A stretch of 64,000 bases of DNA, from contig CAZOVJ010000001.1 of assembly GCA_964583685.1 (NCBI GenBank), positions 4,033 to 68,032 on the forward strand, in the 5' to 3' direction. Below are positions 30,616 to 61,007 of this stretch, one piece after another. Numbering within the stretch: the first letter of the stretch is position 1; the number at the start of each line of letters is the position of its first letter. The DNA is from an uncultured Gammaproteobacteria bacterium. Lineage in GTDB: Bacteria > Patescibacteriota > Microgenomatia > UBA8517. Both the position numbers and the translations under genes were made by a program. The notes under the pieces were generated by a model. That model saw only the letters and a program-made list of their open reading frames with translations, had not been told where the DNA came from and ran no database searches.

Positions 30616-30756
30616 TGTCCCGCGGAGCGAGATCCCGCTCTGCGGGAAAAAATCAAAAATACAAGTAATAACTCAAAAGTGTTAAAATATAATCGATTAA
30701 TTTTAATTTTTGAATTGCAATTTTGAACTTTAAATTTTGAATTTTGAATTGATTTC
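30616..30756 (+). repeat. composite repeat region (family-1 palindrome cccgcggagcgagatcccgctctgcggg + aaaatcaaaaat, then inverted AATTTTGAA tracts)
   Basis: Same palindrome as inside leuS (52307-52334) but in the opposite orientation, followed by A-rich hexamer tracts. Confidence 0.6.
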
Positions 30757-30828
30757 GGGCCTGTAGCTCAGAGGTAGAGTGCCCCGGTCGCAACGGGGAG
30801 GTCAGGGGTTCGATTCCCCTCGGGTCCA
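30757..30828 (+). tRNA. tRNA-Ala (anticodon CGC)
   Basis: gggcctgTAgctcagaggtagagtGccccgGTCGCAAcggggaggtcaggggTTCGATTcccctcgggtccA. G3:U70 identity pair, 72 nt. Confidence 0.8.
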
Positions 30829-30891
30829 CTTGATTGATAAAACACACCTCTAAGGTGAAATAGGTAGACATCTCCAAGGGTGTGAGGTGTT

Positions 30892-41272: not shown

Positions 41273-41324
41273 AATTTGTTACTATACTTTCAATCACGCC
41301 CCTCGGGAAACCGGGGGGACATTT

Positions 41325-47900: not shown

Positions 47901-49731
47901 AGTTTCCAGCATTACTAACAGTAAACCTGGCATCATATGTATCATCAGTATGTGTCAGTCTTAATTGTTCTGAGCTTGAAGATACTTCTAATTTAGCATC
48001 TGGACTTGAATCTCCAATGCCAATATTGTCTGCTCCCGCATCAACAAAGAACAAATTAACATCTGTATCTCCTTCTATTCTCAAATCAGCATCATTGCCT
48101 TGTTCATTAAAGACAGCACCTCCATCAGCATGGAAGATAATATCTGCAGCTGAAGTAGAGGAACCACCAATGGCTAAATCATCACTGGTGGTTACTGGCG
48201 AAAGAACTCCAGAAATTCGTTGCCAAAAGCTGGAGACAGAACCTCCACCTAAATTAACCCAACTAGTACCGTTCCAAATATAGAGTGAGGTATCTGAAGT
48301 ATTAAAAACAAGCGTTCCTTGACCTATTGCGTTGGGGTTTGAAATAAATCGACCTAGTTGTACTTGTCCATCAAAGCGAGTATTACCCTCATCCACAAAA
48401 AGGGCCATAGCTTCGATGGCTCCATTATAACGTTTTAGTTTAAGGGTAGAGTAAATAGAATTTGAATATCCACGCTCGTCAAGAGTCAAGGTTAGGGCAT
48501 CGGAGAGGCCGGAGGCTTTTTTGGTAATTGTTGCACTACTACCAGCTTGCTGGCTTATTGAGAAATTTCCTGAAGTTTGAGAATAGCCAGTTATATTTTT
48601 TAACTTTCCCCCAGAGGTTAGGCGAGTAGTTTCGGCAGTTGAAATATCCTTTTCAACATTCAGATCTCCGGCAATTTGGGTATTACCGAGACTATCAACG
48701 CTGAAGCGGGTTTGGTTTGGAGAGCCGCTTTCTAGCTTTATAAGGTTGTAACCACTGGCATTATTGGCGACAATGCCATAATAAAGTGAGCCGGAGATTA
48801 AATTTGGTGCTTGGGCATTAAGAAAATTTCCCCTATAACCCTCAAAAAGGAAATGGGCGGTGCCAGAACCATCTGGATTTATTTCAATGTTTCCATCTGA
48901 GCCGGTAGGCGTGCTGATTGTTATTGCCTGGCCTTCAATTAAAAGATTGCCATCTGTTGCCTTTACGGCTGGAGCTTCCGAGGCCAGGAGAAGTTCGCCA
49001 TTCTCTGAAATAAGAGGGATTGTAGTTGGGCCGGCTTCAATAGAGGGATAGAATCCTTGCAAGCTTGCTGCTGTGTTGGCGGTCGAGACTGGAATAAGCC
49101 TGTCTGGTTCGCCTTCACTGGTGACCGCCGACAAAAACAGTTTTTCATTTTCAAAAAAGAGTTCAGTTGGAACATCATCTAATAATATCAAAATATCTCC
49201 ATTTGTATCAGGAGTAATTTGTTTTTGTTCAGAGGTCCAGACAGATTGATTTTTGTCTTCATCTTTATAGAGCCTGAAGGTTATTGATCGAGTAGTTGTA
49301 ATGGGAGCGTTTGCTTGATTTTTCAAGTTCATCTTGGCAAAAATTGTCCAGGGAGAAAGAATAGCTATTTCTTGCTCGCCAGAAGGCTCAATCTTTGTCG
49401 GTTCAGCTTGCTCAGCTGGAAAGACAGGCAAAAAGGGGATAGGAAGTTGTAATTTTTGGACAAGAAGGAAGATTAGGACAGCTGACCCGACGATTATACT
49501 ACCTCGGAAAAGATTAGTCAGATTAAACCGAGGAAGTCTGACCGGTTGAGGTTTTACCTCAGGAATTTGCTCAAAAGGATTTTGCTCAAGATGTCCTTCC
49601 TTCCGGGCCCAGTTAAAGAAGCGCTTTAAAGAAGACATTTTGCGCTTTGTGGTCGCAGCCGAGGAACGTTCGGCAATCTCTTCTTTATATTTTTTTACTA
49701 ATTCTGGTGTGATATTACTAAAATGGTCCAT
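41950..49731 (-). CDS. giant surface protein (2593 aa): N-terminal phage-integrase SAM-like domain, TM anchor, large repetitive beta-rich ectodomain with tail-fibre-like motifs
   Basis: N-terminus ITPELVKKYKEEIAERSSAATTKRKMSSLKRFFNWARKEGHLEQNPF matches the integrase core-binding fold. TM segment LFRGSIIVGSAVLIFLLVQKL. Internal ~1.3 kb near-identical DNA repeats. IGIGTTNPSTALEV / GIGTASPISKLHV tail-fibre-like motifs. Confidence 0.8.
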   Translation of the reverse strand: MDHFSNITPELVKKYKEEIAERSSAATTKRKMSSLKRFFNWARKEGHLEQNPFEQIPEVKPQPVRLPRFNLTNLFRGSIIVGSAVLIFLLVQKLQLPIPFLPVFPAEQAEPTKIEPSGEQEIAILSPWTIFAKMNLKNQANAPITTTRSITFRLYKDEDKNQSVWTSEQKQITPDTNGDILILLDDVPTELFFENEKLFLSAVTSEGEPDRLIPVSTANTAASLQGFYPSIEAGPTTIPLISENGELLLASEAPAVKATDGNLLIEGQAITISTPTGSDGNIEINPDGSGTAHFLFEGYRGNFLNAQAPNLISGSLYYGIVANNASGYNLIKLESGSPNQTRFSVDSLGNTQIAGDLNVEKDISTAETTRLTSGGKLKNITGYSQTSGNFSISQQAGSSATITKKASGLSDALTLTLDERGYSNSIYSTLKLKRYNGAIEAMALFVDEGNTRFDGQVQLGRFISNPNAIGQGTLVFNTSDTSLYIWNGTSWVNLGGGSVSSFWQRISGVLSPVTTSDDLAIGGSSTSAADIIFHADGGAVFNEQGNDADLRIEGDTDVNLFFVDAGADNIGIGDSSPDAKLEVSSSSEQLRLTHTDDTYDARFTVSNAGNLTIDVTGSYLAITDNLQVNGGDIGISTDTDLIQLASGALSVNGTLTATGNIDSSGGVIQTNSTNRIDNSGNLANIGTTQFNTVVYTWPGSDGSSGDILSTNSTGTLSWVDPDVAVAGGIYWTLTGETIHPKNALWHDLGIGGTSTAAATFHVAANTGAVKAANGAFDIDSSGNISDVGSITSDSNITTTGGYGSFSSYVLADYLQIQDTNDSHQLSLVWNENETVADRTLNFLVAAGDRSLTLNEDFTIGDGHAGTLTFSAASKTLTVEDDTYVNQDLTTDANPSFAGVTAGNIKVGVTGDEEIDTVSGNLTLDSAGGTVNVDDALTATGNIDSSGGVIQTNSTNRIDNSGNLANIGTTQFNTVVYTWPGSDGSSGDILSTNSTGTLSWVAQSGGGEGWWTESSGALYPINTTLDVLIGDTASSSADIIFHADGGAVFNEQGNDADLRIEGDTDVNLFFVDAGADNIGIGDSSPDAKLEVSSSSEQLRLTHTDDTYDARFTVSNAGNLTIDVTGSYLAITDNLQVNGGDIGISTDTDLIQLASGALSVNGTLTATGNITTTGGYGSFSSYVLADYLQIQDTNDSHQLSLVWNENETVADRTLNFLVAAGDRSLTLNEDFTIGDGHAGTLTFSAASKTLTVEDDTYVNQDLTTDANPSFAGVTAGNIKVGVTGDEEIDTVSGNLTLDSAGGTVNVDDALTATGTITADGGLITRSDANLTFSTTTSGNLTLSSVGDLLFTDDNATNIPLTVSDTDLSPFPSGDRALVDALNYVREIAAGETSFSGYWQLSSNVIAPRHESVYELAVGGTSTSSATFHVGLSGDLQAGGAAADVSYSRFGTATTGHAGNLTTADDLLVSGDLEIDGVLFLDGLIIANKTLGTSTITFTDTPTTSYNSLSASSWLIENTANVGLAALMVNQTKDGDILTASASGTPKMALTNAGVLKLYNATSTISNDSGDITINAASDNISLASDNLINVNDAYFAGQVGIGTASPISKLHVDGAVVGKALAIFNETGDQAIFTASASGTTKFVIEHSGRVGINDALQVGSTTTAAYSRFGTATTGHSGNLTAADDLLISGDLEIDGVLFLDGLIIANKTLGTSTITFTDTPTTAYNTLSASSWLIENTANLGQAALMVNQTKGGDIFTASASGTPKFVIDNSGKVGIGTTNPSTALEVSGTVTATDFECDGCIDEGDLETAPDIQYVATDPNQRVTTSATYADFASQSSVTVNMGGLGTHWTFDFWVLTQMDQDGTGYLELYDVTNSQSISGSEVSFTSRSPIALSATGVTMPSSGTVTFRVRGKVPGSGSYLRLFWWAIYCRRTGAGADLAEYYRSTEPLGAGDVVAINFNEDKKINKSSQAYDPSSIGIVSSEPGMVLGNIDGTRQQSDAYPVALAGRVPVKVSLEGGVIKRGDPLTSSSVPGVAMKANSAGPIIGKAMEEFNGYSGQVMAFVNLSYYNPGVDTGDEVFDQVKITDREAGTYAIDQTGNLLGLGAWHSKLEDSSPITISEGESQAILEQLSQLGNLASKTLSAAVVNIYETLSAKEIKTFALEVTENIKAGAITARELAVDGLRAVGIKTALIETELISPVPDGNLVIDLDNSSPDASESAFGKLIVKGEGGEEVASIDAEGNARLAGDLEARQASFSGKMSSNQLAVASDATIAGELHAKKIYADEIVTSELSTVDSEQSITLEEIEELLREAEEEQSLLADSTDWNINTATDSSNLDELALNNLYVTETAAMNSLSLSQSLTIGPDLIIQSQMTDDQSLTINSIDTLSAPLKLQSLALAPLEIMAGKVRIDTDGNMQITGNLYVGGQIEASGLTLRESEQENGGPASPAGGFGKLLNLLDAEGNEIASIDASGSGQFKTVSTDKLIIAGSEATTSATLLTGLVTETNATAGKAMIPAGSREITIKNPRVTDYSLIYVTPTSSTLNNVLYVKSKNSCTEETQECKPNFVVGFNQALEVDVEFNWWIIDVTE

Positions 49732-49858
49732 ATTAAGGATGTCTAAAATCTAGCCACTTTTTCCGTCCGCCTAGAGTACTTGGCCAGCTAGAGGCAGTTG
49801 TGGTGTTCTTGAGGTTGATACCTTTTAATGTTGTTTGTGGCAGTTTTGTCATGGACAG

Positions 49859-50368
49859 TTATTGGATACGAGATGCTGAATTTTCAGCTTCTAGCCAAGA
49901 AATGAATTGTTTTATATCAGAAAGATAGTTTTTGATAGTATTGTGAGATACTTTTTCGCTTTGGAGATGGTTTTTGAATGAGCCAGCAATTGACTGTGAG
50001 AAGTCTTTGGAGGGTAGAGAGATCTCTCCCGAAGAGGGAATGTTGCTAATTTCTTCGGTAAAGTTGTAGTCTATGGTCTGAATTCCCTGAAGAAAACGAC
50101 CGAAATGACGGAGAGTGGACAACCGACGATTAATGGTTTTGTTGGCAATCTTATTTTGGACAAGAAAATTTTTATATTCCTGAGCCAGCTTTTTGGACAG
50201 ATAGGGAAGGATGTCATCTAAGCCTTCGGCCAAGGCGCCCCAATTACGGGCCTTGAGTAAAATCCAGCCGGTAAAATGGGAAAGGTCTGAACGATAAAAC
50301 TTTAAGCTTTTTGGAGAAATGCCAATTTCTTCTGTGAGATAGGTTTCAAATTTCTTTTTGATGGGCAT
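49859..50368 (-). CDS. protein made of tandem phage-integrase N-terminal SAM-like (core-binding) domains, no catalytic domain
   Basis: Two repeats of the motif seen at the N-terminus of the giant gene: ...SPKSLKFYRSDLSHFTGWI...TINRRLSTLRHFGRFL and ...VSHNTIKNYLSDIKQFISWL. 169 aa. Confidence 0.55.
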   Translation of the reverse strand: MPIKKKFETYLTEEIGISPKSLKFYRSDLSHFTGWILLKARNWGALAEGLDDILPYLSKKLAQEYKNFLVQNKIANKTINRRLSTLRHFGRFLQGIQTIDYNFTEEISNIPSSGEISLPSKDFSQSIAGSFKNHLQSEKVSHNTIKNYLSDIKQFISWLEAENSASRIQ

Positions 50369-50954
50369 GGTTAGATCGAGAGTAAATTATACTGATTATA
50401 CTAATTATACTATTTCTAAAAGGCCTAAAAGAGTTTGTCAAGGGGCATTTTAGCTCAAAATTAATTTGAATCTATTAATTTTTCACGCATGATGATAGTT
50501 TAATTTCCGCGGGCAAATTTGCCTATCTCTTTATATTAAAATATGTCAATCTATTATCCTATAAGAAGGAATTCTTGCTTAAAAACTTTTAAAACACGTG
50601 CCTGGCTTGAGGCTTGCGGTAATCTGCGGAAAAAGAGATTTTAATGAAGAATTTAAATTGAGATTGCGCAAATTGAGCTGATTTACTGGCTATTTATCTT
50701 TTAGCAGCTCATTATCTTAAGTGCTAGGAAAAATCATGTTTGAAAATGGCCAAGAAATAGGAGTTTCTTTATTTTTTAATCCCTAAACTTTTCTTGCTTA
50801 ATAATTGAGCGACAATATAAACAACAATCAAAAAGGCGATGAGTTGGAGACTGTAATGGGCCAAGGGGCTTTTTAGTCGAAAAAAAGGCAAAAGCGACTG
50901 AGATACCGAGAATTAAGCTGTTGACAATGAATTGCAGTCGGGCAGAAAGCATTT

Positions 50955-51218
50955 TTATCTACTCAAACCTTCAAAAATCCACCTTTTGATAAGTGATTGG
51001 TAAGGAATATCTATTTTATGAGCTTTGATTTTGACTCTCTCGATTAGAGTTTGTGGCAAGCGAATAGTTATTGGTTTGCTTGTTAATTTTAAGTTTGGAA
51101 ACTTCCAATTCTCCAATGATTTGTATTCCACATATTCAGTTGAGTCGACCTTTTGCCAGAACCTGCGTTCTTCTGCCTCTGATTTAAATTTTGGAATCCT
51201 TTTTAGTCTTTTCTTCAT
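50955..51218 (-). CDS. brnA: BrnA antitoxin (RHH)
   Basis: KPITIRLPQTLIERVKIKAHKIDIPYQSLIKRWIFEGL matches the BrnA C-terminal signature. Overlaps upstream brnT. Confidence 0.7.
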   Translation of the reverse strand: MKKRLKRIPKFKSEAEERRFWQKVDSTEYVEYKSLENWKFPNLKLTSKPITIRLPQTLIERVKIKAHKIDIPYQSLIKRWIFEGLSR

Positions 51219-51537
51219 ATATACTCCTTTCTCTTTTATTGGCAGCTCTTCCTGAGATTACCCTGATTTTATCTTTTCTAATGGTAAAAACTACAAATAG
51301 TATCTTCTCTTCAAAATCTTTACCTATTGCTATAAATCGCTTTTCTTCCTGGCTATGTTTTATGTCCCTTTCTATTCGTAAATTGTCGTCTAAAAAAACT
51401 TCCTCTGTTTGATTCGGTGTAATTCCGTGCTTTTTATAACTTTTGTCTATGTTGTTTTTATCCCATTCAAAACCCTTAGTTTTACCAAAATCAACCACTG
51501 TACATGTATTATATGTACATAGCGAATCTTTTGTCAA
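51184..51537 (-). CDS. brnT: BrnT ribonuclease toxin (DUF497)
   Basis: FEWDKNNIDKSYKKHGITPNQTEEVF...RFIAIG...IRVISGRAANKRERSIYE matches the BrnT consensus. Confidence 0.7.
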   Translation of the reverse strand: MTKDSLCTYNTCTVVDFGKTKGFEWDKNNIDKSYKKHGITPNQTEEVFLDDNLRIERDIKHSQEEKRFIAIGKDFEEKILFVVFTIRKDKIRVISGRAANKRERSIYEEKTKKDSKI

Positions 51538-51572
51538 TAATGTGTATTGGAACTTATTGAGGATGTGATAAA

Positions 51573-54161
51573 ATGACAGCCAAGGTGGCTGAAAAATACA
51601 ATCATCAAAAGATAGAAAAGAAGTGGCAAAAAAAATGGGAGAAGACGGGCTTATACACTCCGGATATCCCTTCGGCCAAAAGGCCTTTTTATAATCTTTG
51701 GATGTTTCCTTATCCCTCGGCTGAAGGTCTCCATGCTGGTCATGTCTTTGCCTCGACTGGCTCAGATGTTTACGGCCGCTTTATGCGCATGCGGGGCAAG
51801 GATGTTTTTCAGCCGATTGGCTATGATTCTTTTGGTATCCATTCCGAGAATTTTGCCCTAAAAATTGGTGAGCATCCTCAAAAAATGCTGAGCCGAACCA
51901 TCAAAAACTATGAACGACAATTGATGAGTTTGGGGCATGGCTATGATTGGAACCGAACACTGATGACTTCTGATATAGATTATTATAGATGGACACAGTG
52001 GCTTTTTATCCAGATGTTCAAAGCAGGCCTGGCTTATCGGGCCAAGGCAAGGGTTAATTGGTGTCCTTCTTGCAAGACGGTTTTGGCTGACGAGCAGGTG
52101 ATTAGCGGCAGATGCGAAAGATGTTCAGCTGAGGTTGAGCACAAAGAATTGGAGCAATGGTTTTTCAAGATTACCAGCTATGCTGACAGATTATTGGCCA
52201 ACTTAGAAAAGATTGACTGGCCGGAAAAGATAAAGACCATTCAGAAAAACTGGATCGGCCGGTCAAAGGGAATGATAATAAAATTCAAAAATCAAAATTC
52301 AAAAATCTCCCGCAGAGCGGGATCCCGTCTCGCGGGAAAAATTTCCGTTTTTACTACCCGGCCGGATACCCTTTTTGGTACGACTTTTTTGGTTCTGTCG
52401 CCAGAGAAGGCGAAAAAATTTCTCAGCCTTGTTCCCTTGAGCAAAAAAGCTACTATATCAAAATATATCGAAAGAACACTGAGGAGAACAAAACAAGAAA
52501 GAAAATTGGAGGAAAAAGAGAGAATTGGGCTGGATATGGGCTTTAAGGCAATTAATCCGGCAAACCAAGAGAGGGTGCCGGTTTTTGTGGCTGATTATGT
52601 TTTAATGGAGCATGGTACGGGGGCAGTCATGGGCGTGCCCGGACATGATCATCGGGATTGGGATTTTGCCAAAAAATACAATTTACCGATTATTGAAGTG
52701 GTTGGCGGTGGACAGATGCAAAAGGCTGCTTATACCGGGCCGGGCAAGCTGATTAATTCTGATGAATGGAACGGCTGGCAAATGCCTCAGCAGTTGGACA
52801 AGGTTTTAGATTATCTGGAAAAAAAGAAATGGGCTAAAAAAACCACTACTTATCATCTTCGCGATTGGTTGATTTCCCGGCAGCGCTATTGGGGTCCGCC
52901 CATTCCCATGATTTATTGTCCAAAGTGTGCCAAAAAAGGGAAAGCTAGCTCTATGTCCGGATGGTATCCGGTGGAGGAGAGCGAGTTGCCAGTAGAATTG
53001 CCTTATTATAGGGACTATCAACCCAAGGGTGGAGGAAGGGGGCCGTTGGCCGACCATCCGGAGTTTTATCAAACAAAATGCCCGGTTTGTGGGGCTGAGG
53101 CTCAACGGGAGACTGATGTTTCCGATACTTTTCTTGATTCTTCCTGGTATTTTTTGCGCTATCCTTCGACTCGCTCCGCTCGCTCAGGACAGGTCCCTTT
53201 TGATCCAAAGATTACCAAGAAGTGGTTACCGGTTAATCTTTATTTTGGCGGAGCTGAGCATGCTGTCCTCCATCTTTTGTATGCCCGCTTTATTAGTCTA
53301 GCCCTTGATGACATGGGCTATTTGAAGTTTTCCTCCAGAGTGAGAGGAGAGCCTTTTCCTTGGTTTTATAGCCATGGCTTGATGATTAAGGACGGAGCCA
53401 AGATGAGCAAGTCAAGAGGCAATGTGGTTAATCCCGATGAGTATATTGAGAAATTTGGGGCCGATACATTGCGTCTTTACCTGATATTTATGGGGCCGAT
53501 GGATGGAACTCCGGATTTTAGGGATACGGGCATTGAGGGAATGCATCGTTTCTTAATGCGGGTTTGGGGATTATTTCAAAGTCAAGGGGCTGAGCAACTC
53601 GAGAAGGAGTTGCTGGTCAAAATGCATCAAACTATAAAGAAAGTGACGGAAGACATTGAGAAATTTCATTATAATACGGCCATTTCCAGCATTATGGAGT
53701 ATGTCAACGTGCTCCGCACTCAAACTCAAAACTCAAATCTCAAAACTCAAAACAATAGGGAATGGTCTGAATGTCTGCGGGTATTGGTCCTTTTGCTCGC
53801 CCCTTTTGCTCCCCATCTGGCGGAGGAGATATGGCAAAATCTCTCCCGCGGAGCGGGGTCCCTGCCTGGGCAGACAGGACAAAAATCTTTTAAATCCATC
53901 CATCTTGAGGCCTGGCCAAAATATAATTCCAAATTGATAAAAGAGACTTTGGTGAGAATTGTTGTACAGGTCAATGACCGGGTTCGCAGTCAGATAGATG
54001 TTGATAGCCTGAGGTTGAAGGATGAGACCTATGTTGAGGAAATGGCTAAAAAGGATGAAAAGGCAAGGAATTGGCTGAAGTCCAGGAAAATTAGAAGGGT
54101 TGTTTATGTGCCTGGTCGGCTAATCAATTTTCTCGTCACTCCTGGCCATGGAAAAAATTGA
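51573..54161 (+). CDS. leuS: leucyl-tRNA synthetase, carrying two in-frame repeat-element insertions
   Basis: Class I HIGH (PYPSAEGLHAGHV) and KMSKS motifs. NWIGRS...TTRPDT block. 862 aa. Inserts at 52281-52345 and 53718-53880. Confidence 0.95.
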   Translation: MTAKVAEKYNHQKIEKKWQKKWEKTGLYTPDIPSAKRPFYNLWMFPYPSAEGLHAGHVFASTGSDVYGRFMRMRGKDVFQPIGYDSFGIHSENFALKIGEHPQKMLSRTIKNYERQLMSLGHGYDWNRTLMTSDIDYYRWTQWLFIQMFKAGLAYRAKARVNWCPSCKTVLADEQVISGRCERCSAEVEHKELEQWFFKITSYADRLLANLEKIDWPEKIKTIQKNWIGRSKGMIIKFKNQNSKISRRAGSRLAGKISVFTTRPDTLFGTTFLVLSPEKAKKFLSLVPLSKKATISKYIERTLRRTKQERKLEEKERIGLDMGFKAINPANQERVPVFVADYVLMEHGTGAVMGVPGHDHRDWDFAKKYNLPIIEVVGGGQMQKAAYTGPGKLINSDEWNGWQMPQQLDKVLDYLEKKKWAKKTTTYHLRDWLISRQRYWGPPIPMIYCPKCAKKGKASSMSGWYPVEESELPVELPYYRDYQPKGGGRGPLADHPEFYQTKCPVCGAEAQRETDVSDTFLDSSWYFLRYPSTRSARSGQVPFDPKITKKWLPVNLYFGGAEHAVLHLLYARFISLALDDMGYLKFSSRVRGEPFPWFYSHGLMIKDGAKMSKSRGNVVNPDEYIEKFGADTLRLYLIFMGPMDGTPDFRDTGIEGMHRFLMRVWGLFQSQGAEQLEKELLVKMHQTIKKVTEDIEKFHYNTAISSIMEYVNVLRTQTQNSNLKTQNNREWSECLRVLVLLLAPFAPHLAEEIWQNLSRGAGSLPGQTGQKSFKSIHLEAWPKYNSKLIKETLVRIVVQVNDRVRSQIDVDSLRLKDETYVEEMAKKDEKARNWLKSRKIRRVVYVPGRLINFLVTPGHGKN
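52281..52345 (+). repeat. family-1 repeat element (AAATTCAAAAATC... + cccgcagagcggg-atc-ccgtctcgcggg) inserted in frame in leuS
   Basis: Encodes KNQNSKISRRAGSRLAGKIS between the conserved NWIGRS and TTRPDT blocks. Same palindrome in reverse orientation at 30621-30648. Confidence 0.7.
53718..53880 (+). repeat. family-1 composite insert in leuS (CAAAACTCAAA tracts + cccgcggagcgggg palindrome)
   Basis: Encodes QTQNSNLKTQNN ... NLSRGAGSLPGQTGQ in regions that are short in other LeuRS. Confidence 0.55.
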
Positions 54162-54771
54162 TTGGCAAGAGCTGCTTTTCAAATTTCGTTGGCAGATTGT
54201 CTTTCTTCTTTTGGGTCTTATCTTGGTTGCTGGGGGCTTGATTTTAGCCAAAAGCGATATTTTCTCTCCTAAACCTCAGATAGAGATTCTAGAGAGCGTT
54301 TCAGAAGGAGAGGGGGCAAATAAGCATGTTATTGTCGAAATAGCCGGTAGTGTGGAAAAGCCTGGGGTTTATAAATTGCCGGCTAGTTCGCGAATTGAAG
54401 ATTTACTGATTGCTTGTGGTGGAGTTTCAGCTGACGCGGACCGTGAATGGATGGAAAAAACTCTGAATCGAGCCGCCAAGTTGGTTGATGGCCAAAAGAT
54501 TTTTATTCCCGCCTTCGCCAAGGCTTCGGCGGGTGGGCCAAGGGAAACTCAAAACAACGGAACCGCGGTGGCGGGGAGTTATATCTCCGAGTTGATAAAC
54601 ATCAATACGGCCAGTCAAAAAGAACTGGAAACACTGTGGGGAATTGGCCCTGTTACAGCCCAAAACATCATTGAACACAGACCTTACTCATCTGTCGAAG
54701 AACTGCTTTCCAAAAAGATTTTAAAGACAAATGTTTATGAAAGGACCAAAGATAAGCTATCAGTCTATTAA
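54148..54771 (+). CDS. comEA: competence protein ComEA (TM anchor, SLBB domain, C-terminal HhH DNA-binding)
   Basis: NINTASQKELETLWGIGPVTAQNIIEHRP HhH signature. Contains a family-2 repeat encoding PAFAKASAGGPR. Confidence 0.8.
   Translation: MEKIDWQELLFKFRWQIVFLLLGLILVAGGLILAKSDIFSPKPQIEILESVSEGEGANKHVIVEIAGSVEKPGVYKLPASSRIEDLLIACGGVSADADREWMEKTLNRAAKLVDGQKIFIPAFAKASAGGPRETQNNGTAVAGSYISELININTASQKELETLWGIGPVTAQNIIEHRPYSSVEELLSKKILKTNVYERTKDKLSVY
54508..54538 (+). repeat. family-2 GC-rich palindromic repeat (cccgccttcgccaaggcttcggcgggtgggcc) in comEA
   Basis: Near-identical copies at 56367-56400, 58717-58764 and 62725-62788. Diverged copies at 8101-8133, 59091-59124, 61731-61775 and 62915-62962. 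Confidence 0.75.
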
Positions 54772-54825
54772 AAAATCAAAATTACAAGTTAAAATTCAAA
54801 AATTTTAAGATTTTGCATTGTCATT

Positions 54826-55899
54826 TTGCATTTTCTTAAGATGAGATATTCGTTATGGTTCTTTTTAATTTTCCTGGTTGTTTTTCGCTTTTTAACAACC
54901 CGGCCGATTTATAAAAACGGCGATAAGGTACGGTTAAGAGGTCAGGTTTCTTCAGAACCAACAAGATATAGCCAGCAGCAAGGATTAAACCTAGCAGGCC
55001 TCAAAATTTATTTGCCGCTTTACCCGGAAATCAATTATGGAGACAGAATTGTTGTCAGGGGAGTGGTGGAAGATAGAGTTTTGAAAAATGCTCAGCTAAT
55101 CAGGTTTGAAGAAAGCAAGAGCCTTTTTTTTAAAGTGAGAAAAAAGCTGGTCGCATTTTATCAAAGCTCCCTAGCCGAGCCTCATTCGGCTTTGCTTGGA
55201 GGAGTGGTTTTGGGCACTAAAGCCAGTCTGCCTAAGGATTTTTGGCAGGCTTTGAAAAAGACCGGCACCGCTCATGTCGTTGTTGCTTCGGGAATGAATG
55301 TTACCTTGGTAGCCAATTTTTTAATTAGCCTGCTCATTTCATTTTTACCCCGAAAAAAAGCTATTCCAGTTGCTCTGTTGGGAATTTGGGCCTATTCTTT
55401 TGTTTCTGGTTTTGATGCTCCGATTATCAGGGCGGCCATCATGAGCTCTTTGGCCTTTAGTGGCCAGGCTCTGGGCAAGCTTTACCAAGCTTGGCGAGCT
55501 CTGTTTCTGTCAGCTGGGGTTATGCTTGTAGTTAAGCCGGATTGGCTCTTTGATTTGGGTTTTATCTTATCCTTTGCGGCCACGGCCTCACTGATGCTTT
55601 TTGGGAGTAAAATTTACCGTTTGATACAGTTTATGCCGGGAATATTCAGAGAGGGATTGGCAACCTCTCTGGCCGCCCAGATTGGAGTAGCGCCCTTACT
55701 TTATCTGAGCTTTGGCCAATTTAATCTTCTTACTCCTTTAATCAATGCCCTGGTTCTTTGGACAATTCCGATAATGACAGTCATTGGTTTTGTTGCTGGA
55801 CTGCTGGGCTTAATTGTGCCCTTTCTTGGTAGTTTGATATTGTTTTTGTGCTATCCTTTGACCAGCTGGTTTATAAGTATAGTTGGCTTGTTTGGTTAA
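54826..55899 (+). CDS. comEC: ComEC/Rec2 membrane channel (competence domain), N-terminal part of a split comEC
   Basis: Polytopic competence-domain segment. Stops 12 nt before the next ORF, which carries the MBL domain. Confidence 0.65.
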   Translation: MHFLKMRYSLWFFLIFLVVFRFLTTRPIYKNGDKVRLRGQVSSEPTRYSQQQGLNLAGLKIYLPLYPEINYGDRIVVRGVVEDRVLKNAQLIRFEESKSLFFKVRKKLVAFYQSSLAEPHSALLGGVVLGTKASLPKDFWQALKKTGTAHVVVASGMNVTLVANFLISLLISFLPRKKAIPVALLGIWAYSFVSGFDAPIIRAAIMSSLAFSGQALGKLYQAWRALFLSAGVMLVVKPDWLFDLGFILSFAATASLMLFGSKIYRLIQFMPGIFREGLATSLAAQIGVAPLLYLSFGQFNLLTPLINALVLWTIPIMTVIGFVAGLLGLIVPFLGSLILFLCYPLTSWFISIVGLFG

Positions 55900-55911
55900 C
55901 AAGGTTCTGAA

Positions 55912-56781
55912 ATGAAATCTCGCTGGAAATTTATTTTGGCAGGATTAGGCTTGTTTAGTCTTAGTCTCTGGCTGGCTGTTTTTACTCTTCCGGATAAAAA
56001 TCTCCATTTAATAGCCTGCGATGTGGGCCAGGGAGATGCGATTTTGTTAACCCTGGACTCAACTCAAATTTTGATTGATGGAGGACCGAATAACTCGGTT
56101 CTTGATTGTTTAGGAGAAAATATGCCTTTCTGGGACAGAAAAATAGAGTTGGTTGTCCTTTCTCACCCCCAGAAAGACCATTTTATGGGTTTAATAGATG
56201 TTTTTAAGCGATATAAAGTGGATACTGTACTGGCAAGCGGGCTTGATTCTAGCACTCAAGGATATCAAGTGCTAAAAAAGGAGGCAGGGGGTAGTGGGGC
56301 GAGAGTAGTTACTCCAGATATAGGTACGATTCTCAGGTTGGGTTTGATGGAGTTAGAGGTGGTCTGGCCCGCCTTCGCCAAGGCTTCGGCGGGCGGGCCC
56401 AGGGGTTTGGGAACATTTACTTCTAACCAAGACCCGAATGATTTTTCAATTGTTCTTAATTTAAAGCTGGTTGATTTTGATGCCTTGTTCACCGGTGATA
56501 TTGGTCCAAAGGTAACCCCCAAAATTCTTGAGACCGGTAGAATTAGGCATGTAAACTATCTCAAAGTGCCTCATCATGGCTCAAAAAATGGCCTGACAGA
56601 GGAATTACTAGAGCAAAGTAAACCGGAAATAGCCGTCATTTCTGTTGGCAAAAATCAGTGGGGCCACCCTCATCAAGAAGTGTTGGAGATGTTGGCCGAT
56701 TACGGGTTACGGGTTTTTCGGACGGATTTGGATGGAAATGTAGAGATCGTCACCGATGGACAAGATTGGTGGATACCCTAA
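55912..56781 (+). CDS. comEC: ComEC metallo-beta-lactamase domain (C-terminal part of split comEC)
   Basis: LSHPQKDHFMGL and VPHHGSKNG motifs. Contains a family-2 repeat encoding PAFAKASAGGPRG. Confidence 0.7.
   Translation: MKSRWKFILAGLGLFSLSLWLAVFTLPDKNLHLIACDVGQGDAILLTLDSTQILIDGGPNNSVLDCLGENMPFWDRKIELVVLSHPQKDHFMGLIDVFKRYKVDTVLASGLDSSTQGYQVLKKEAGGSGARVVTPDIGTILRLGLMELEVVWPAFAKASAGGPRGLGTFTSNQDPNDFSIVLNLKLVDFDALFTGDIGPKVTPKILETGRIRHVNYLKVPHHGSKNGLTEELLEQSKPEIAVISVGKNQWGHPHQEVLEMLADYGLRVFRTDLDGNVEIVTDGQDWWIP
56367..56400 (+). repeat. family-2 repeat in comEC MBL-domain ORF
   Basis: gcccgccttcgccaaggcttcggcgggcgggccc. Confidence 0.75.
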
Positions 56782-56808
56782 ATTATCTTTTGATATAAAA
56801 TATACTAC

Positions 56809-57765
56809 ATGTCGCATGAAAGAGTTGGAGAAGATATTTTTTCTATTTATCAGGAGGAGACTCTTGGTCATAGGCTACCGACAGAAGGGGAAGAGCGAGA
56901 GTTAGGGGAATATATAAGAGGAAACAAAGAGTATGATCCGGAAGAGTTGGAAGAGAGATTTCAGATGGAAGGTAACCCAGCCCAAATCTTAGCAGCTCAC
57001 TGTTATAGGCTTGCTGCCAATATCGCTAAAAAATATCAAGGATTAGGACTTCCTTATATGGATTTGATACAGGAGGGCAATGTTGGTCTATATAAAGCAG
57101 CTAAAAGATTTGATCCTGGGAAGGGTGTTAGGTTTACTAGTTTCGCGACCCTGTGGATACGTCGGGAGATTTTGCGTGCCCTGGCTAATCGAGGCCGGAT
57201 GATCAGAATTCCAGTTTATATGTTGGCACAACTTAGGGGGATGAAAAAAATAAGGGCATTTCTCAATCAAGAGCTGGGGAGGGAGCCTACCAGAGAGGAA
57301 GTTGCCCTGGAGTTAGCCAGAAGGACATTTGAGAAGAGGGAGGGTCGATCGGTCGGATTTGAAGAAATTGGTGAAGCCGCCAGAAAAAAAGCAAAAAAGA
57401 AGGTTGACCTACTCTCTAAAATAAGCCCTAGGCCATTGAGCCTTCAGCAACCAATTAATCCAGGAGATGAAGATAGTGACCTTCAGATTGATTTTATTAA
57501 GGACCAGGCACCTCAACCTGAAAGTGTTCTCTCAGAAGATAGTGAGCTTAAAGAATGCATTGCCGCCACCTTGTCTCAATTGACTCCCAGGCAAGAAAGG
57601 ATAATTAGACTGCGATTTGGTATTGACGATGGTAGAGAGCGCACACGGGAGGAAATTGCTAGAATGTTTGGTTTAAGCAGGCAGCGGATAGAGCAGATCG
57701 AAAAGGTGGCCCTTAAAAGACTTCGTCACCCGGCAAGGTCGAGGAAATTAAAACCTTTTCTTTAG
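56809..57765 (+). CDS. RNA polymerase sigma-70 family factor (primary-sigma-like, short)
   Basis: Region 2 (DLIQEGNVGLYKAAKRFDPGKGVRFTSFATLWIRREI) and region 4 HTH (TREEIARMFGLSRQRIEQIEKVALKRLRH). Confidence 0.8.
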   Translation: MSHERVGEDIFSIYQEETLGHRLPTEGEERELGEYIRGNKEYDPEELEERFQMEGNPAQILAAHCYRLAANIAKKYQGLGLPYMDLIQEGNVGLYKAAKRFDPGKGVRFTSFATLWIRREILRALANRGRMIRIPVYMLAQLRGMKKIRAFLNQELGREPTREEVALELARRTFEKREGRSVGFEEIGEAARKKAKKKVDLLSKISPRPLSLQQPINPGDEDSDLQIDFIKDQAPQPESVLSEDSELKECIAATLSQLTPRQERIIRLRFGIDDGRERTREEIARMFGLSRQRIEQIEKVALKRLRHPARSRKLKPFL

Positions 57766-57800
57766 GACTAGTTTTAAAGAAAAAGTGATACAATGGGTCA

Positions 57801-59693
57801 GTGAAGAGAGATATTATTGTTGATGCTCTAAAAGCTGCCTCTGGAGAAAAAGAAATTAATCTTGAATTTCCCGAGAATCAGGCTCATGGAGATTATGCAA
57901 CTAATGTTGCATTGAAAATCAAAAATCAAAAATCAAAAATCAAAAGTACAAATCAAAGATTAAAACTAAAAGAATCCAGAAGTTCAAGAGAATTAGCGGA
58001 GGAAATAGCGGGCAAACTGCGAAAAGATAAGGATTTGCAGGGGATTGTTGCCAAGATAGAGGTGGCTGGGCCTGGTTTTATTAATTTCTTTTTGTCTAAA
58101 AAAGTTCTCATTGACAATCTTCAGACAGTGGTTGAGAAAGGAGAGAAATATGGCAGTTCCAATCTGGGTCAAGGCAAGACAGTGATTATTGATTATTCTT
58201 CACCAAATATTGCAAAGTATTTCGCCATAGGTCATTTACGCTCGACAATCATCGGCCAAGCGCTCTATAACATTTATGGTTTTCTTGGCTATAAGATGAT
58301 TGGCGAGAATCATTTGGGAGATTGGGGAACGCAATTTGGCATGCTTATTGCCCAGGTTGTTAGGAAAAACTTGGATATTGAGAAACTTAAAATTGCGGAC
58401 CTGGAAAGACTTTATGTTGAATTTAACCAAGCGGTTGAGAAAAGACCTGAGCTGGCTGAAAATGCAAGAGTTTGGTTTAAGAAGCTGGAGCAGGGTGACA
58501 AGGAAGCCCGAAAGATTTGGCAGGCCGCAGTTGAAATTTCTTCAAAAGAATTTAAGAGAATTTATAAACTGTTGGGGGTTGAAATTGAGAATTGGCATGG
58601 TGAAAGTTTTTATGAGAATAAGACCCAGGTAGTAATCAAGGAGGTTAGGGAAAAGGGCTTGTCCAAGAAAAGCCAGGAAGCTGAAATTATTGAATTTGAT
58701 CGCCCCGCAGTTGACGGGGCAGGCCCACCTTCGCCAAGGCTACGGCGGACAGGCCTGCCGGCAGTAATGTTGCTCAAGAGCGATGGAGCGACCACCTATT
58801 TTACTCGTGATTTGGCGGCCTTGAAATTTAGAATTAAGACCTGGAAGCCGGAGATTATTATCTATGAAGTTGGGGCAGACCAAAAGCTTCATTTTCAACA
58901 ACTATTTAGAATCGCGGATTTGTTGGGTTGGGTTAAGGGAAGAAAATTTGTTCATATTGCTCATGGTTTGATACGTTTTGAGCATGGCAAAATGTCCACC
59001 AGGCGGGGCCAGACAGTTAAATTAGAGAAGGTTCTGGTAGAAGCAATCCAAAGAGCGAGAAAAATCATTGAGGAATCAGGAACAGGCAGTGGCCTGCCTC
59101 GCCGAGTCAAGGCGGGCCTGTCGGAAAAAGAAAAGGAGAGAATTAGCAGGATGGTGGGTATCGGAGCAATTAAATATTTTGATTTGTCCCATCATTATTC
59201 TTCGGACATCATTTTTGATTGGGAAAAGCTTTTTGTTCTGACCGGAAATTCCGGGCCATATTTACAATACACCTGCGCTAGAACACAAAGTGTTCTAGCT
59301 AAAATCAAAAACCTGCCCGTCCGGCAGGCGGGTCAAAAATCAAAAATCAAAACTACAGATGAAAAATCAAATAATAAAAACAGTTTTGATGATTGGGATT
59401 TAGAAATTAACGACGAAGAATCTTTGCTTCTGAGGAGTTTAGGCCAATTTCCCGAAATAATCATTGATGTCGCCAAAAATTACTCACCCAACCTTTTATG
59501 CAACTATCTTTTTGAGCTGGCCCAAAAATATAATACCTTTTATGAGCGTCATCGGATCCTTAACGCTAAAGCAAAAAATAAAGAACAAAGTGCCCAGTTA
59601 AAAAAATTGAGAATCGCTATCACTATGGCTGTTAGCCAGGTTCTTAAAAACGGCCTAACTCTTCTGGGGATAGAGTCTCCGGAGAGAATGTAG
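57801..59693 (+). CDS. argS: arginyl-tRNA synthetase, GTG start, carrying four in-frame repeat insertions
   Basis: HIGH-region IGHLRSTIIG. C-terminal anticodon-binding DALYS-type domain. 630 aa. Inserts at 57915-57960, 58717-58764, 59091-59124 and 59301-59385. Confidence 0.9.
   Translation: MKRDIIVDALKAASGEKEINLEFPENQAHGDYATNVALKIKNQKSKIKSTNQRLKLKESRSSRELAEEIAGKLRKDKDLQGIVAKIEVAGPGFINFFLSKKVLIDNLQTVVEKGEKYGSSNLGQGKTVIIDYSSPNIAKYFAIGHLRSTIIGQALYNIYGFLGYKMIGENHLGDWGTQFGMLIAQVVRKNLDIEKLKIADLERLYVEFNQAVEKRPELAENARVWFKKLEQGDKEARKIWQAAVEISSKEFKRIYKLLGVEIENWHGESFYENKTQVVIKEVREKGLSKKSQEAEIIEFDRPAVDGAGPPSPRLRRTGLPAVMLLKSDGATTYFTRDLAALKFRIKTWKPEIIIYEVGADQKLHFQQLFRIADLLGWVKGRKFVHIAHGLIRFEHGKMSTRRGQTVKLEKVLVEAIQRARKIIEESGTGSGLPRRVKAGLSEKEKERISRMVGIGAIKYFDLSHHYSSDIIFDWEKLFVLTGNSGPYLQYTCARTQSVLAKIKNLPVRQAGQKSKIKTTDEKSNNKNSFDDWDLEINDEESLLLRSLGQFPEIIIDVAKNYSPNLLCNYLFELAQKYNTFYERHRILNAKAKNKEQSAQLKKLRIAITMAVSQVLKNGLTLLGIESPERM
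57915..57960 (+). repeat. family-1 A-rich hexamer tract (AAAATC x4...) in frame in argS
   Basis: Encodes KIKNQKSKIKSTNQ. Confidence 0.6.
59301..59385 (+). repeat. family-1 element (AAAATCAAAAA + cctgcccgtccggcaggcggg palindrome + AAAATC tracts) in frame in argS
   Basis: Encodes KIKNLPVRQAGQKSKIKTTDEKSNNKN. Confidence 0.6.
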
Positions 59694-59726
59694 ATTGAGA
59701 CCTACCGTGATAAAATAAATGAATTT

Positions 59727-61007
59727 ATGAAGCATAAATTGATAACTTTAGAGAATGATTTGCGGCTAATTGTTGCCCCAATTCCCAGTTTGGCCTCAGC
59801 CACCATTACTGTTTGGGTTGGTACTGGCTCAAGGTTTGAAGCTCCAAGAACCAGTGGACTTAGTCACTTTTTGGAGCACATGGTTTTCAAAGGCAGTCAA
59901 AAGAGGCCTTCGGCCAAGCTGATTGCCCAGGCCGTTGATGCGATTGGAGGAGAGTTTAATGCTGGTACAACCAAAGAATGGACCAATTTTTATATCAAAG
60001 TTCGCAATCAAAGGCTTGGACTAGCCTTTGATGTTCTTTCCGATATGGTCCTCAACCCTCTTTTGAAAAAGGAGGATATCGAACGGGAAAAGGGAGTTAT
60101 TGTTGAGGAAATCGCCATGTGTGAGGATACTCCGGCCATGAGAATTGGCCATGTTTTTGAACAAGTAATTTTTCAGGGAACTTCTTTGGCAAGAGATATT
60201 ATTGGTACGGCCAAGACAGTCAAGGGGATGAAGAGAGTGGATTTTCAACGATATAGAAAGAGATATTATTATCCTGAGAATATTGTTCTTACTGTATCCG
60301 GAGGCATTGTTGAAAAAGATGCGTTAAAACTGGCTAAAAAGTATTTTGGGGAAATTAAGCTCGGGGCTAAATCTCAAGTAGGAGAGACAGGCTTTCAGTC
60401 GAGCCAAAAAAAGCCGAGATTTAAACTTTATCCTAAGAAAAAGGAACAGGCCCATTTTATTTTGGGATTTTTGGCTAGTCCCAGGGGTCACAGGGATAGA
60501 TATATTGAGGCTGTGCTTGCCACTATTTTGGGAGGAGGAATGAGCTCACGGCTTTTTAGCGAGATTAGAGAGAAACGGGGATTGGCTTATGCTGTTAAGA
60601 CAGGCGTGGATTCATATCGGGATACCGGTTATCTGGCCACTTATGCAGGTGTTGACCCGAAAAGGATTGAGGAAGCGGTCAAGGTTATGCTTGAAGAGCA
60701 CTCTAAAATCTCCCGCTCCGCGGGAAAAAATCAGGAGTTAAAAAAAGCGAAGGAGTATGTTAAGGGACATTTGGCTCTAGTCCTGGAAGATACCAAGAGT
60801 GTGAATGAGTTTTTTGGTATAGAAGAGCTTCTTTTAGGCAAGACCAGGACTCCGGAGCAAGTTTTTCAAGCGATTGACAAGGTGACGATTCAAGATGTGA
60901 TTCGGGTAGCCAAAAAGTTATTCGTGCCTGAAAAGCTTAATCTGACGATAATCGGACCTTACAGGGCATCTGTCCGTTTTGAGCGGCTCATTTCCAGTTT
61001 CCATTGA
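59727..61007 (+). CDS. M16-family (pitrilysin-like) zinc peptidase
   Basis: Inverted zinc motif HFLEHMVFKGS near the N-terminus. 426 aa. Contains a family-1 insert at 60705-60733. Confidence 0.8.
   Translation: MKHKLITLENDLRLIVAPIPSLASATITVWVGTGSRFEAPRTSGLSHFLEHMVFKGSQKRPSAKLIAQAVDAIGGEFNAGTTKEWTNFYIKVRNQRLGLAFDVLSDMVLNPLLKKEDIEREKGVIVEEIAMCEDTPAMRIGHVFEQVIFQGTSLARDIIGTAKTVKGMKRVDFQRYRKRYYYPENIVLTVSGGIVEKDALKLAKKYFGEIKLGAKSQVGETGFQSSQKKPRFKLYPKKKEQAHFILGFLASPRGHRDRYIEAVLATILGGGMSSRLFSEIREKRGLAYAVKTGVDSYRDTGYLATYAGVDPKRIEEAVKVMLEEHSKISRSAGKNQELKKAKEYVKGHLALVLEDTKSVNEFFGIEELLLGKTRTPEQVFQAIDKVTIQDVIRVAKKLFVPEKLNLTIIGPYRASVRFERLISSFH

Follow-up and report, generated by a model that had tools for sequence, protein, structure and literature searches.

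The closest described counterparts of the repeats considered here come from cyanobacteria, where hairpin elements of 21 to 27 nucleotides (nt), called small dispersed repeats (SDR), are reportedly often embedded in tandem heptanucleotides (STRR). SDR are said to occur in many contexts and to have been proposed as mobile without a known enzyme. Short GC-rich palindromes also occur in the A/T-rich organelle DNA of some eukaryotes, as the mobile GC clusters of yeast mitochondria and the byps of Magnusiomyces; they are sometimes found in coding sequence, and the byps are skipped by the ribosome. The genomes of bacteria in the Candidate Phyla Radiation (CPR, or Patescibacteria) are tiny, and the usual description is that mobile elements are scarce in them. 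Here we describe a repeat system in a 64-kb stretch of DNA (contig CAZOVJ010000001.1; the whole analysed stretch is called the window) from an uncultured, ultra-small, Woesebacteria-like CPR bacterium. It combines A-rich tandem heptamers of the general form (AAAAHTC)n with small hairpins of the form CCCGC-RGA-GCGGG, and it lies both in intergenic spacers and in frame within the genes for leucyl-tRNA synthetase (leuS, LeuRS), arginyl-tRNA synthetase (argS, ArgRS), RadA, and an M16 peptidase. Most likely the feature is a DNA-level repeat system of selfish or neutral character, and the reading we prefer, with a probability of roughly 0.5, is that it has two layers, namely long-lived heptamer tracts into which small terminator-like hairpins were copied, with selection filtering the results.

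Rickettsia palindromic elements (RPEs) are palindromic repeats that lie in frame in unrelated housekeeping genes and encode peptides compatible with the fold and function of the protein (PMC10969869, PMC3184786). SPRITE, a dispersed repeat that resembles an intrinsic terminator, is listed among the repeats able to fuse with or enter protein genes (PMC3184786). According to one survey, heptanucleotides are the commonest of the prokaryotic simple repeats with units of 5 to 11 nt and have a patchy phylogeny, and slippage has been proposed as their origin, with 7 nt corresponding to a contact length of the polymerase (PMC4679880). The same survey describes them as mainly intergenic and often located just before start codons, with units that are not a multiple of three being rare in coding sequence, and gives as one example TAACTGA, which is found in Beggiatoaceae, cyanobacteria, and Bacteroidetes. 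The REP and REPIN families are short GC-rich imperfect palindromes whose inverted doublets form a longer hairpin and for which roles in termination or mRNA stability have been proposed (PMC3733652, PMC3116915).

The tracts of the window were initially annotated as AAAATC, AAATTC, or AAACTC hexamers. All sequences quoted in that annotation are present where it placed them and its translations are correct, but the period is not six: the unit is a heptamer, for which Tandem Repeats Finder (TRF) returned periods of 7, 14, and 20 and the units AAAATCA, AAAAATC, AAAATTC, and ACTCAAA. Six strict period-7 tandem tracts were observed in the window against 0.3 in block shuffles, and the same strict test gave none at periods 8 and 10 to 12 and one at period 5. 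The tracts are thus heptanucleotide simple-sequence repeats in the sense of tandem 7-nt arrays beyond chance. Since a period of 7 nt excludes selection at the level of codons, it argues that the tracts were made and remodelled at the DNA level. One way for this to happen is in place, with A/T-rich Lys, Ile, Phe, and Asn codons at β-hairpin turns and linkers being expanded by slippage in 7-nt steps and no copying or mobility involved, an account that is unlikely but to be taken seriously. It would fit the reported standing of heptanucleotides as the commonest class of long simple repeats in prokaryotes, with slippage proposed (PMC4679880). It would also fit the first leuS site, where the tract is a perfect 14-nt tandem duplication by TRF and covers native I-K-F-K codons that are heptamer-like already in relatives (ATTAAATTCAAAATTAAAGATTC, encoding IKFKIK, in the locus L021).

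The hairpins are likewise far more frequent than expected. CCCGC-N3-GCGGG with at most one mismatch occurs at 16 sites, compared with 0.63 expected from shuffles of the whole window, and AAAATCAAAAATC with at most two mismatches occurs 30 times against 8.2 expected. Where the hairpin belongs neither to the rRNA nor to a terminator, its loop reads AGA or GGA (TCT or TCC as the complement), and CCCGC-RGA-GCGGG in its two orientations is, judged by its sequence, one family. Its main form, TCCCGC-RGA-GCGGGA, is either a 15-nt monomer or a head-to-head dimer of 28 to 30 nt, and dimers folding as one long hairpin are found at two loci (30619-46 and 52308-37). Hairpins and tracts are tightly coupled, as AAAATC or GATTTT lies within 12 nt of 9 of the 10 hairpin loci where 0.63 would be expected at random (none of 20,000 trials gave nine).

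If the tracts had grown in place, the hairpins would have to have done so as well, by local mutation or template switching, with their likeness reflecting convergence on the most stable minimal GC stem; both halves of this account stand jointly at the same low likelihood. The heterogeneity of the stems favors it, as do the two coding copies that bring no net length (the M16 peptidase copy and the second leuS site) and the lack of a transposase among the 30 window open reading frames (ORFs) whose domains were scanned. It is harder to reconcile with the coupling just described, with a loop that is constantly NGA or its complement, and with a core of 13 to 15 nt at a minimum of seven non-rRNA loci against the 0.63 CCCGC-N3-GCGGG expected in the whole window. 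The core also lies within heptamer tracts, in frame and in unrelated genes, in organisms of 37-57% GC (among the matches listed), and a 30-nt GC-rich block in leuS, encoding SRRAGSRLAG, is missing from 59 of 59 orthologs, with no A/T-rich precursor.

This block provides the clearest case of an insert. In an alignment of 60 LeuRS orthologs SRRAGSRLAG corresponds to a gap in every other sequence, and it is a 10-residue gap relative to the Thermus thermophilus LeuRS structure 1H3N, in the β-ribbon just before the TTRPDT motif. An AlphaFold model of LeuRS built from 73 sequences has a mean pLDDT (predicted local distance difference test) of 86 and places the leuS features in weak loops, with local values of 63 at residues 241-250, 63 at 721-730, and 46 at 761-770. 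The initial description of the coding copies as in-frame peptide inserts therefore stands for the leuS hairpins, by ortholog alignment, and for the C-terminal copy of argS, but not for the M16 copy and leuS site 2, neither of which adds net length; the M16 loop is in fact two residues shorter than in the 61%-identical ortholog. Altogether six hairpin-bearing sites lie within leuS, argS, radA, and the M16 peptidase gene (Table 1), the radA copy at 8523-8553 being an additional coding copy that had been missed. The outcome is most likely a set of Lys/Asn/Gln/Ser-rich loops such as KISRxAG in LeuRS, ArgRS, RadA, and the M16 peptidase.

Some of the sites differ in structure from what was first claimed. 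A tract joined to a palindrome had been listed for every site, and both parts are present at several, but 54772-54834 and 57915-57965 consist of a tract only and 9992-10006 of a palindrome only. What had been taken as a single site at 53718-53880 is a tract (53718-53754) and a hairpin pair (53845-53880) separated by about 90 nt of conserved leuS coding sequence. The hairpin at 59312-59332 in argS is real, although its stem differs from that of the family (CCTGCC-CGTCC-GGCAGG). Two further structures were noted in argS. At 58702-58765 there is a separate GC-rich in-frame insert, AVDGAGPPSPRLRRTG, of which 13 residues are missing in the relative L003; it contains the hairpin GCCCCG-cagttga-CGGGGC and has no heptamer tract, so it possibly belongs to another repeat family. 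Directly upstream of the C-terminal tract, at 59277-59299, a perfect 10-bp stem (GCTAGAACAC-aaa-GTGTTCTAGC) lies in the conserved ArgRS motif YTCARTQSVLA; chance alone would give about 0.3 stems of this kind in 64 kb.

The orientation of the coding copies follows a simple rule, as the sense strand is A-rich at all seven coding tract or hairpin sites. No frame of (AAAATCA)n contains a stop codon, and the restriction to this orientation within genes can be explained because the complement, (TGATTTT)n, meets a TGA in each frame within three units. The hairpin is read as TCC-CGC-NNN-GCG-GGA, or S-R-x-A-G, with the loop forming one codon. On the opposite strand, the hairpin and tract form the standard terminator module of a GC stem and a T-run, and for this reason the terminators and the intragenic copies probably form one sequence family. 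The palindrome had been claimed as the stem of terminators at 16805, 19409, and 22206, and stem plus T-run were indeed found at all three, the first two at these positions and the third with its stem at 22197-22210 instead of 22206. These are the best plus-strand terminator-like sites with the family stem, and each ends a gene. Reverse-complemented, the terminator loop TCA becomes TGA, of which the intragenic loops AGA and GGA may be seen as one-step non-stop neighbors. A duplicated module of terminator plus promoter was also observed at 19409-19480 and 22197-22270, consisting of the hairpin, ATTTTTCTTTTT, GGCAGAGAAARTTGAGA, and, after a spacer of 17 nt, TATTAT, upstream of which lies a TG.

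These observations raise the possibility that the elements are kept for what they do, in genes by ending antisense transcription, by structuring the mRNA, or as pause sites, and in spacers as terminator or promoter modules, the peptides being a tolerated by-product. Such a role would account for the three canonical terminators made by the family stem and for the minus-strand reading of the argS and leuS copies, which are the two best terminator-like sites in 49-62 kb; it would also suit the conservation of tract sites across relatives, of the comEA-comEC spacer tract between the window and L003, and of all covered tracts and hairpins among strains. We nevertheless consider it distinctly unlikely. 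Terminator-like sites are not in excess overall (17 vs 14.5 in shuffles), the intragenic copies qualify as intrinsic terminators on the antisense strand only, some sites have a tract and no hairpin, and the hairpins at 9992 and 30619 have no T-run next to them in either direction. Units and lengths vary freely between relatives, and few genes carry copies, with the strict tract scan finding none in two giant minus-strand genes (~16 kb). A promoter role of the tract upstream of tRNA-Ala was also considered and set aside, as just weak -35-like boxes matched, and a scan of the window with Rfam 15 at the gathering threshold matched rRNA and tRNA only, with nothing at the element loci.

The family extends beyond this locus, with tracts in related genomes and composites of tract and hairpin in other metagenomic organisms. 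When 82 LeuS-centred loci were compared, the 25 closest had 0.82 tracts per 10 kb and the remaining 57 had 0.23, with 0.94 in the window. In the 15.9 kb of L003 (LeuRS P0043), which is among the closer relatives, 10 period-7 tracts were counted and no tract of period 6 or 8 to 12; nine of the 10 are in frame in leuS or argS, and the units comprise AAATCCG, AAAGGTA, GAAGCAC, AAAATTC, CAAATTA, AAAACTC, and AAATTCC. Woesebacteria GW2011_GWA1_39_21 (L005) has four tracts. The N-terminal loop of ArgRS carries a tract in three of three genomes, each with different units (AAAATCA, AAATTCC, and AAAACTC/AAAAGTC), and relatives likewise carry tracts with other units at the LeuRS sites and in the comEA-comEC spacer, where TAAAATTACAnnTTAAAATTCAAAA is common to the window and L003. 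The units AAAAATC, AAAATTC, and AAAACTC were found again in several genomes. On these comparisons, turnover of the tracts is visible at deep divergence only. Their distribution is patchy and also takes in an Omnitrophota metagenome-assembled genome (L064), where five different heptamer arrays (GACCATA, GACGAAG, ACGAACT, and others) lie within 350 nt at 217-560, which means that heptamer arrays are not limited to CPR.

Nested hairpins are much rarer than tracts. Among 80 LeuS loci of other genomes there was one real case of a strict hairpin-plus-tract composite, in L003, whose argS carries AAATTCAAAGTTCAAAATTC, a 30-nt GC hairpin, and CAAAATTCAAAATTT, about 51 extra nt in all, at a site left empty in both the window and L005; roughly 14-nt direct repeats of AAATTCA units flank this hairpin. 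Since tracts are common and composites nearly absent in the LeuS loci, the nested hairpins appear to be lineage-specific additions. Metagenome contigs of 37-57% GC, among the matches listed, hold AAAATC-TCCCGCNNNGCGGGA in frame within heptamer tracts of a gltD-like gene (QNSKSKISREAGPNPNK, just before GAGPAG), a NadB-like gene, an RsmH-like gene (KKKTKISRGAGSRQRR), and other genes. The pattern scan that returned them, with AAAATCTCCCGCNNNGCGGGA as query, was noisy, and the matches listed are mainly unrelated, including REP-like arrays, bidirectional terminators, the gcvP N-terminus, and an element from peat metagenomes; viral contigs gave one match only. The peat-metagenome element, GGCTGGCGAACGAAAATCTCCCGCTTCGCGGGATTTGCC...CACGCGCTGGACATTT, is conserved in L092, L118, and about 35 other peat or soil metagenome loci (among the matches listed), has no Rfam match, and could represent a structured RNA not described so far. 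A longer two-hairpin repeat, TCCCGCNNNGCGGGATAA-GATCCCTAAGG..CCAAGGGCTT-TAAAAA, was seen in another low-GC organism (Ga0265297 contigs L090 and L113), with one copy intergenic and one in frame in a Rossmann-fold protein.

The window is overlapped by four assemblies, drawn from three or more samples, at 99.8-100% identity (Table 1), and because the sequence recurs in all of them it is not an artefact. Tract-length polymorphism between strains had been predicted, yet the covered tracts and hairpins contain no indels in any of the four, the solitary hairpin at 9992-10006 is identical in L208, and the ArgRS variant P0122 has identical tracts. Repeat number thus does not vary among close strains across these four assemblies, as it would in a contingency or phase-variable locus, and slippage, if it occurs, must be slow or strongly selected against. 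Two assemblies (L001 and L002) terminate within the argS tracts, which fits the tracts acting as repeats that break short-read assembly. Separately, a 46-nt deletion at 10563-10608 in L208 (L208 1360-1363; coverage 2.6x) splits a sortase-like ORF and represents either true polymorphism or misassembly.

Taken as two layers, the system could work as follows. In the first, A-rich (AAAAHTC)n tracts would be made and remodelled at the DNA level, probably by slippage, and would persist for long periods at permissive sites, namely surface loops of housekeeping proteins, intergenic spacers, and rRNA expansion segments; across Woesebacteria-like CPR each lineage would have its own unit and length at a common site. 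In the second, small GC-rich hairpins would be copied or inserted into the tracts, which would leave tract units on both sides of the hairpin. Within genes, selection would then act as a filter, so that only copies in the A-rich-sense orientation, with frame-keeping lengths, and in flexible surface loops survive.

Several points weigh against this reading. Mobility, one of the two options in the initial annotation (a mobile or slippage-prone element family), is inferred, and the 30 ORFs scanned in the 64-kb window yielded neither a transposase nor a RAYT or a reverse transcriptase. The nearest LeuRS relative is 61% identical, so that insertion events are inferred across deep divergence, and tract lengths are constant among near-identical strains. 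For the M16 copy and the leuS site-2 tract, which bring no net length, in-situ evolution or patch replacement fits equally well. The stems are heterogeneous (CCCGC/GCGGG and CCTGCC/GGCAGG, with CCCCG..CGGGG in L003), and for this reason one mobile sequence family cannot account for all hairpins. A clean target-site duplication of constant length was not seen: the flanks that might represent a fixed 7-nt duplication consist of tract units that vary in phase, and no repeat flanks the copy at 9992. Finally, the preservation of the spacer tract between the window and L003 means that some tracts could be functional. A bolder possibility, which we regard as a long shot, is that the hairpins are undescribed enzyme-less mobile elements of 15-30 nt whose insertion, directed to A-rich heptamers, duplicates 7 nt or a multiple thereof, with repeated insertion and loss building the tracts. 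If this were true, one mechanism would explain 7-nt repeats and nested hairpins in CPR and, independently, in cyanobacteria, and it would supply the essential enzymes of genome-reduced bacteria with new surface loops.

Alternatively, copies could be mobilized by an enzyme encoded elsewhere in the genome, either as REP/REPIN moved by a RAYT (an IS200/IS605-type Y1 transposase) or as a tiny MITE (miniature inverted-repeat transposable element) moved by the transposase of an insertion sequence (IS). The 28-nt long form consists of two inverted units in one hairpin, like a REPIN doublet (PMC3116915), copies occur in both orientations, and several are flanked by direct repeats. Even so, this is very unlikely. 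GTAG and CGTC, the tags of the two REP superfamilies (PMC3733652), adjoin none of the palindromes, whose flanks are AAAATC/T...A/AAAAATC. REP elements are mainly extragenic, whereas about half of the copies here, including the six hairpin-bearing gene sites, are intragenic, and no Y1_Tnp or other transposase domain that would mark a RAYT beside them was detected in the 30 ORFs scanned, all within the 64-kb window. A related Microgenomates genome, Ch65, is reported to have no mobile-element genes (PMC7143001). MITEs are about 50-500 bp long, with terminal inverted repeats, a fixed target-site duplication, and a related IS. The present units, at 13-30 nt, fall far below this size and have no terminal inverted repeats apart from the stem; the direct repeats beside them consist of variable tract units, and the window contains no IS.

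The presence of comEA and comEC within the cluster of copies suggests one more candidate, a DNA uptake signal with a GC core and A/T-rich flanks that serves the adjacent ComEA/ComEC competence system. The uptake signal sequence (USS) of Haemophilus, which is found in coding regions, consists of a GC-containing core between AT-rich flanks, and pairs of the Neisseria DNA uptake sequence (DUS) make terminators. Such signals consist of one exact 9-12-mer at roughly one per kb, whereas the hairpin core here occurs at about 0.16 per kb, differs in loop and stem between copies, and is accompanied by no strongly over-represented 8-10-mer (AAAATCTCC occurs 9 times against 5.1 expected). Membership in the DUS/USS class was therefore rejected, and a role in uptake more broadly is extremely unlikely.

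Table 1. Repeat features of the window and assemblies overlapping it (window coordinates)
Feature	Position	Strand	Remarks
radA, degenerate composite: AAAATCAAAAATC + TCCCGCGGGGGG (collapsed hairpin) + AAAAAA	8523-8553	+	KSKISRGGKK; linker after zinc ribbon
Solitary hairpin TCCCGC-AGA-GCGGGA	9992-10006		Intergenic, downstream of radA; no adjoining tract, no T-run; -12.3 kcal/mol, z -3.65
Intrinsic terminator AATCCCGC-TCA-GCGGGATT + TTTCTTTTT	16805-16835	+	3' end of AbiEii-like gene; family stem
Intrinsic terminator, near-exact copy of that at 16805	19409-19440	+	Followed by promoter-like TTGAGA-17-TATTAT
Intrinsic terminator CCCGC-AACT-GCGGG + ATTTTTCTTTTT	22197-22225	+	Followed by promoter-like module as after 19409
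Degenerate heptamer tract, T-rich orientation (TTGAATT/TTGAATA)	30576-30605	-	Left of long hairpin
Long form, two inverted 13-nt units CCCGCGGAGCGAG-ATC-CCGCTCTGCGGG	30619-30646		One 12-bp hairpin; -29.1 kcal/mol, z -7.8
A-rich tract AAAAAATCAAAAATA	30647-30661	+	Abuts long hairpin 30619-30646
Heptamer tract, AAAATTC type on minus strand, 7.6 copies	30699-30755	-	Directly upstream of tRNA-Ala(CGC)
leuS tract (AAAATTCAAAAATC)x2	52280-52307	+	KFKNQNSKI; overlies native β-strand and turn before TTRPDT motif
leuS 30-nt double hairpin TCCCGCAGAGCGGGA-TC-CCGTCTCGCGGGA	52308-52337	+	SRRAGSRLAG; -19.6 kcal/mol; minus strand terminator-like
leuS site-2 tract ACTCAAA x5.3	53718-53754	+	TQTQNSNLKTQNN; loop between anticodon-domain helices; about native loop length
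leuS site-3 insert: AAAATCTC + CCCGC-GGA-GCGGG + second hairpin TCCCTGCCTGGGCAGACAGGA + CAAAAATC	53838-53885	+	SRGAGSLPGQTGQKS; about +14 aa
comEA-comEC spacer tract, A-rich then T-rich	54772-54834		No palindrome; core TAAAATTACAnnTTAAAATTCAAAA kept in relative L003
argS N-terminal tract AAAATCA x7.4	57915-57965	+	KIKNQKSKIKSTNQRLK; no palindrome
argS C-terminal composite: AAAATCAAAAA + CCTGCC-CGTCC-GGCAGG(CGGG) + (TCAAAAA)n	59301-59380	+	KIKNLPVRQAGQKSKIKTTDEKSNNKN; insert vs two relatives; best minus-strand terminator-like site
Predicted peptide segments of inserts			KISRRAGSRLAGK and LPVRQAGQK
M16 peptidase copy AAAATC + TCCCGC-TCC-GCGGGA + AAAAATC	60705-60733	+	KISRSAGKNQ
Assembly L001 (JGI 3300008517)	48031-59386		Identical
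Assembly L002 (Logan SRR3095939)	47762-57944		Identical
Assembly L207 (JGI 3300028837)	54670-61597		1 mismatch, 0 indels
Assembly L208 (ENA ERZ25073496)	9240-12058		4 mismatches and one unrelated 46-nt deletion

The repeats lie among a mixed set of genes. The window contains a 23S-5S rRNA region with two LAGLIDADG ORFs, five tRNAs, RadA, Rho, the two giant minus-strand genes, and the block leuS-comEA-comEC-MBL-sigma70-argS-M16 peptidase; no 16S gene was found in the 64 kb. Its LeuRS was matched only on the 484,806-bp NCBI contig and on two short metagenome contigs; the best protein after these is the 61%-identical sequence, the named relatives are Woesebacteria or Levybacteria, and the nearest named LeuS locus is that of Ca. 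Woesebacteria Ch104a at 59% identity. The 2593-residue gene at 41950-49731 has an internal repeat (46241-46628 vs 47762-48149, period ~1.5 kb), at which the short-read contigs L001 and L002 both begin. Upstream of leuS, a 169-residue ORF on the minus strand (49859-50368) has phage-integrase N-terminal SAM-like domains only, with no catalytic domain, and adjoins a BrnT/CopG toxin-antitoxin pair. A heptamer tract that is not A-rich, CCGTCCA x4, lies at 15708-15735 in frame in an ORF of 1131 residues (12465-15860) that has no Pfam match.

Eight more CCCGC..GCGGG hairpins occur in the rRNA operon. Rfam alignments identify at least two of them, at 2593 and 3178, as native 23S helices, and the rRNA copies were for this reason left out of the family counts. 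The sole rRNA copy that looks like an insertion is UAUCCCGCUUAGCGGGAUA at 3756-3774, an apparent hairpin of ~20 nt after the conserved GGUCGA of the 23S rRNA; its exact 13-mer CCCGCTTAGCGGG occurs again at 4414 and 4756. At 2755-2885 the 23S rRNA has a 127-nt expansion relative to the Rfam consensus that is made up of 7/14-nt repeats, with AATGATGAATAGCC x3 in one arm, CATTTAG/CATTTGG/CATTTAT in the other, and CCCGCGCAGAGCGTGGGG at the end. The rRNA expansion segments may thus also have been shaped by the heptamer-tract process. The two LAGLIDADG homing-endonuclease ORFs of the region are at 4852-5307 and 6102-6614, the second sitting between the end of the Rfam 23S match (6059) and the 5S gene (7067), a position that may point to a second intron or to a different 3' end of the 23S gene. 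The tRNA-Ile(GAU) at 1939-2013 is on the minus strand, opposite to tRNA-Ala(UGC) at 2307-2382 (+) and to the 23S gene, which is unusual for an rRNA operon spacer.

No description of heptanucleotide repeats or in-frame palindromes in CPR was found in the literature searched, and a Microgenomates genome paper (PMC7143001) mentions neither. In the present genome, DNA-level repeat processes appear to have added loops to LeuRS, ArgRS, RadA, and a peptidase. If the system proves to be genome-wide, some of the lineage-specific insertions that are typical of CPR proteins and rRNAs could be traced to a concrete source, and its interest would rise further if the hairpins prove mobile. It would also explain practical problems, as the tracts, in which two short-read contigs end, break assemblies and form low-complexity segments able to mislead alignment and gene calling. 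As each lineage has its own unit at a common site, the tracts could serve as lineage markers.

By analogy, the overall pattern resembles the known selfish palindromic repeats of Rickettsia and cyanobacteria. Like the RPEs, the present elements are inserted in frame into housekeeping genes. RPEs are, however, about 100-150 bp long with a conserved peptide, belong to an unrelated lineage, and have no tandem-heptamer component, whereas here hairpins of 13-30 nt and variable heptamer tracts encode 10-15 variable residues; it is by size and peptide that the two are set apart. SPRITE differs in being a Firmicute repeat of about 105 bp, again with no heptamer tracts. The prokaryotic heptanucleotide repeats such as TAACTGA share the unit length, but the tracts described here are mostly intragenic and in frame, and several contain a nested GC hairpin. 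REP and REPIN share the short GC-rich palindromes and inverted doublets; the present copies have no GTAG or CGTC tag and are in many cases intragenic, and no RAYT was found in the window ORFs scanned. The yeast GC clusters and Magnusiomyces byps are eukaryotic organelle elements, and since each copy here keeps an open frame with no stop codons, ordinary translation is the simplest reading of those in genes.

The likeness is closest to the cyanobacterial SDR/STRR, as these are reportedly arranged, since a hairpin lies in tandem heptamers at 52280-52345, 59301-59380, and 30576-30661 of the window and in argS of L003. The two systems differ in host (CPR rather than Nostocales) as well as in their heptamer units and hairpin sequence; because the host is a CPR bacterium, common descent is unlikely. 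The present system also differs in that many copies are in frame in essential housekeeping genes and in that its hairpin is the genome's terminator stem. If it extends across the genome, it would represent a second, phylogenetically remote case of hairpins nested in heptamers besides the cyanobacterial one.

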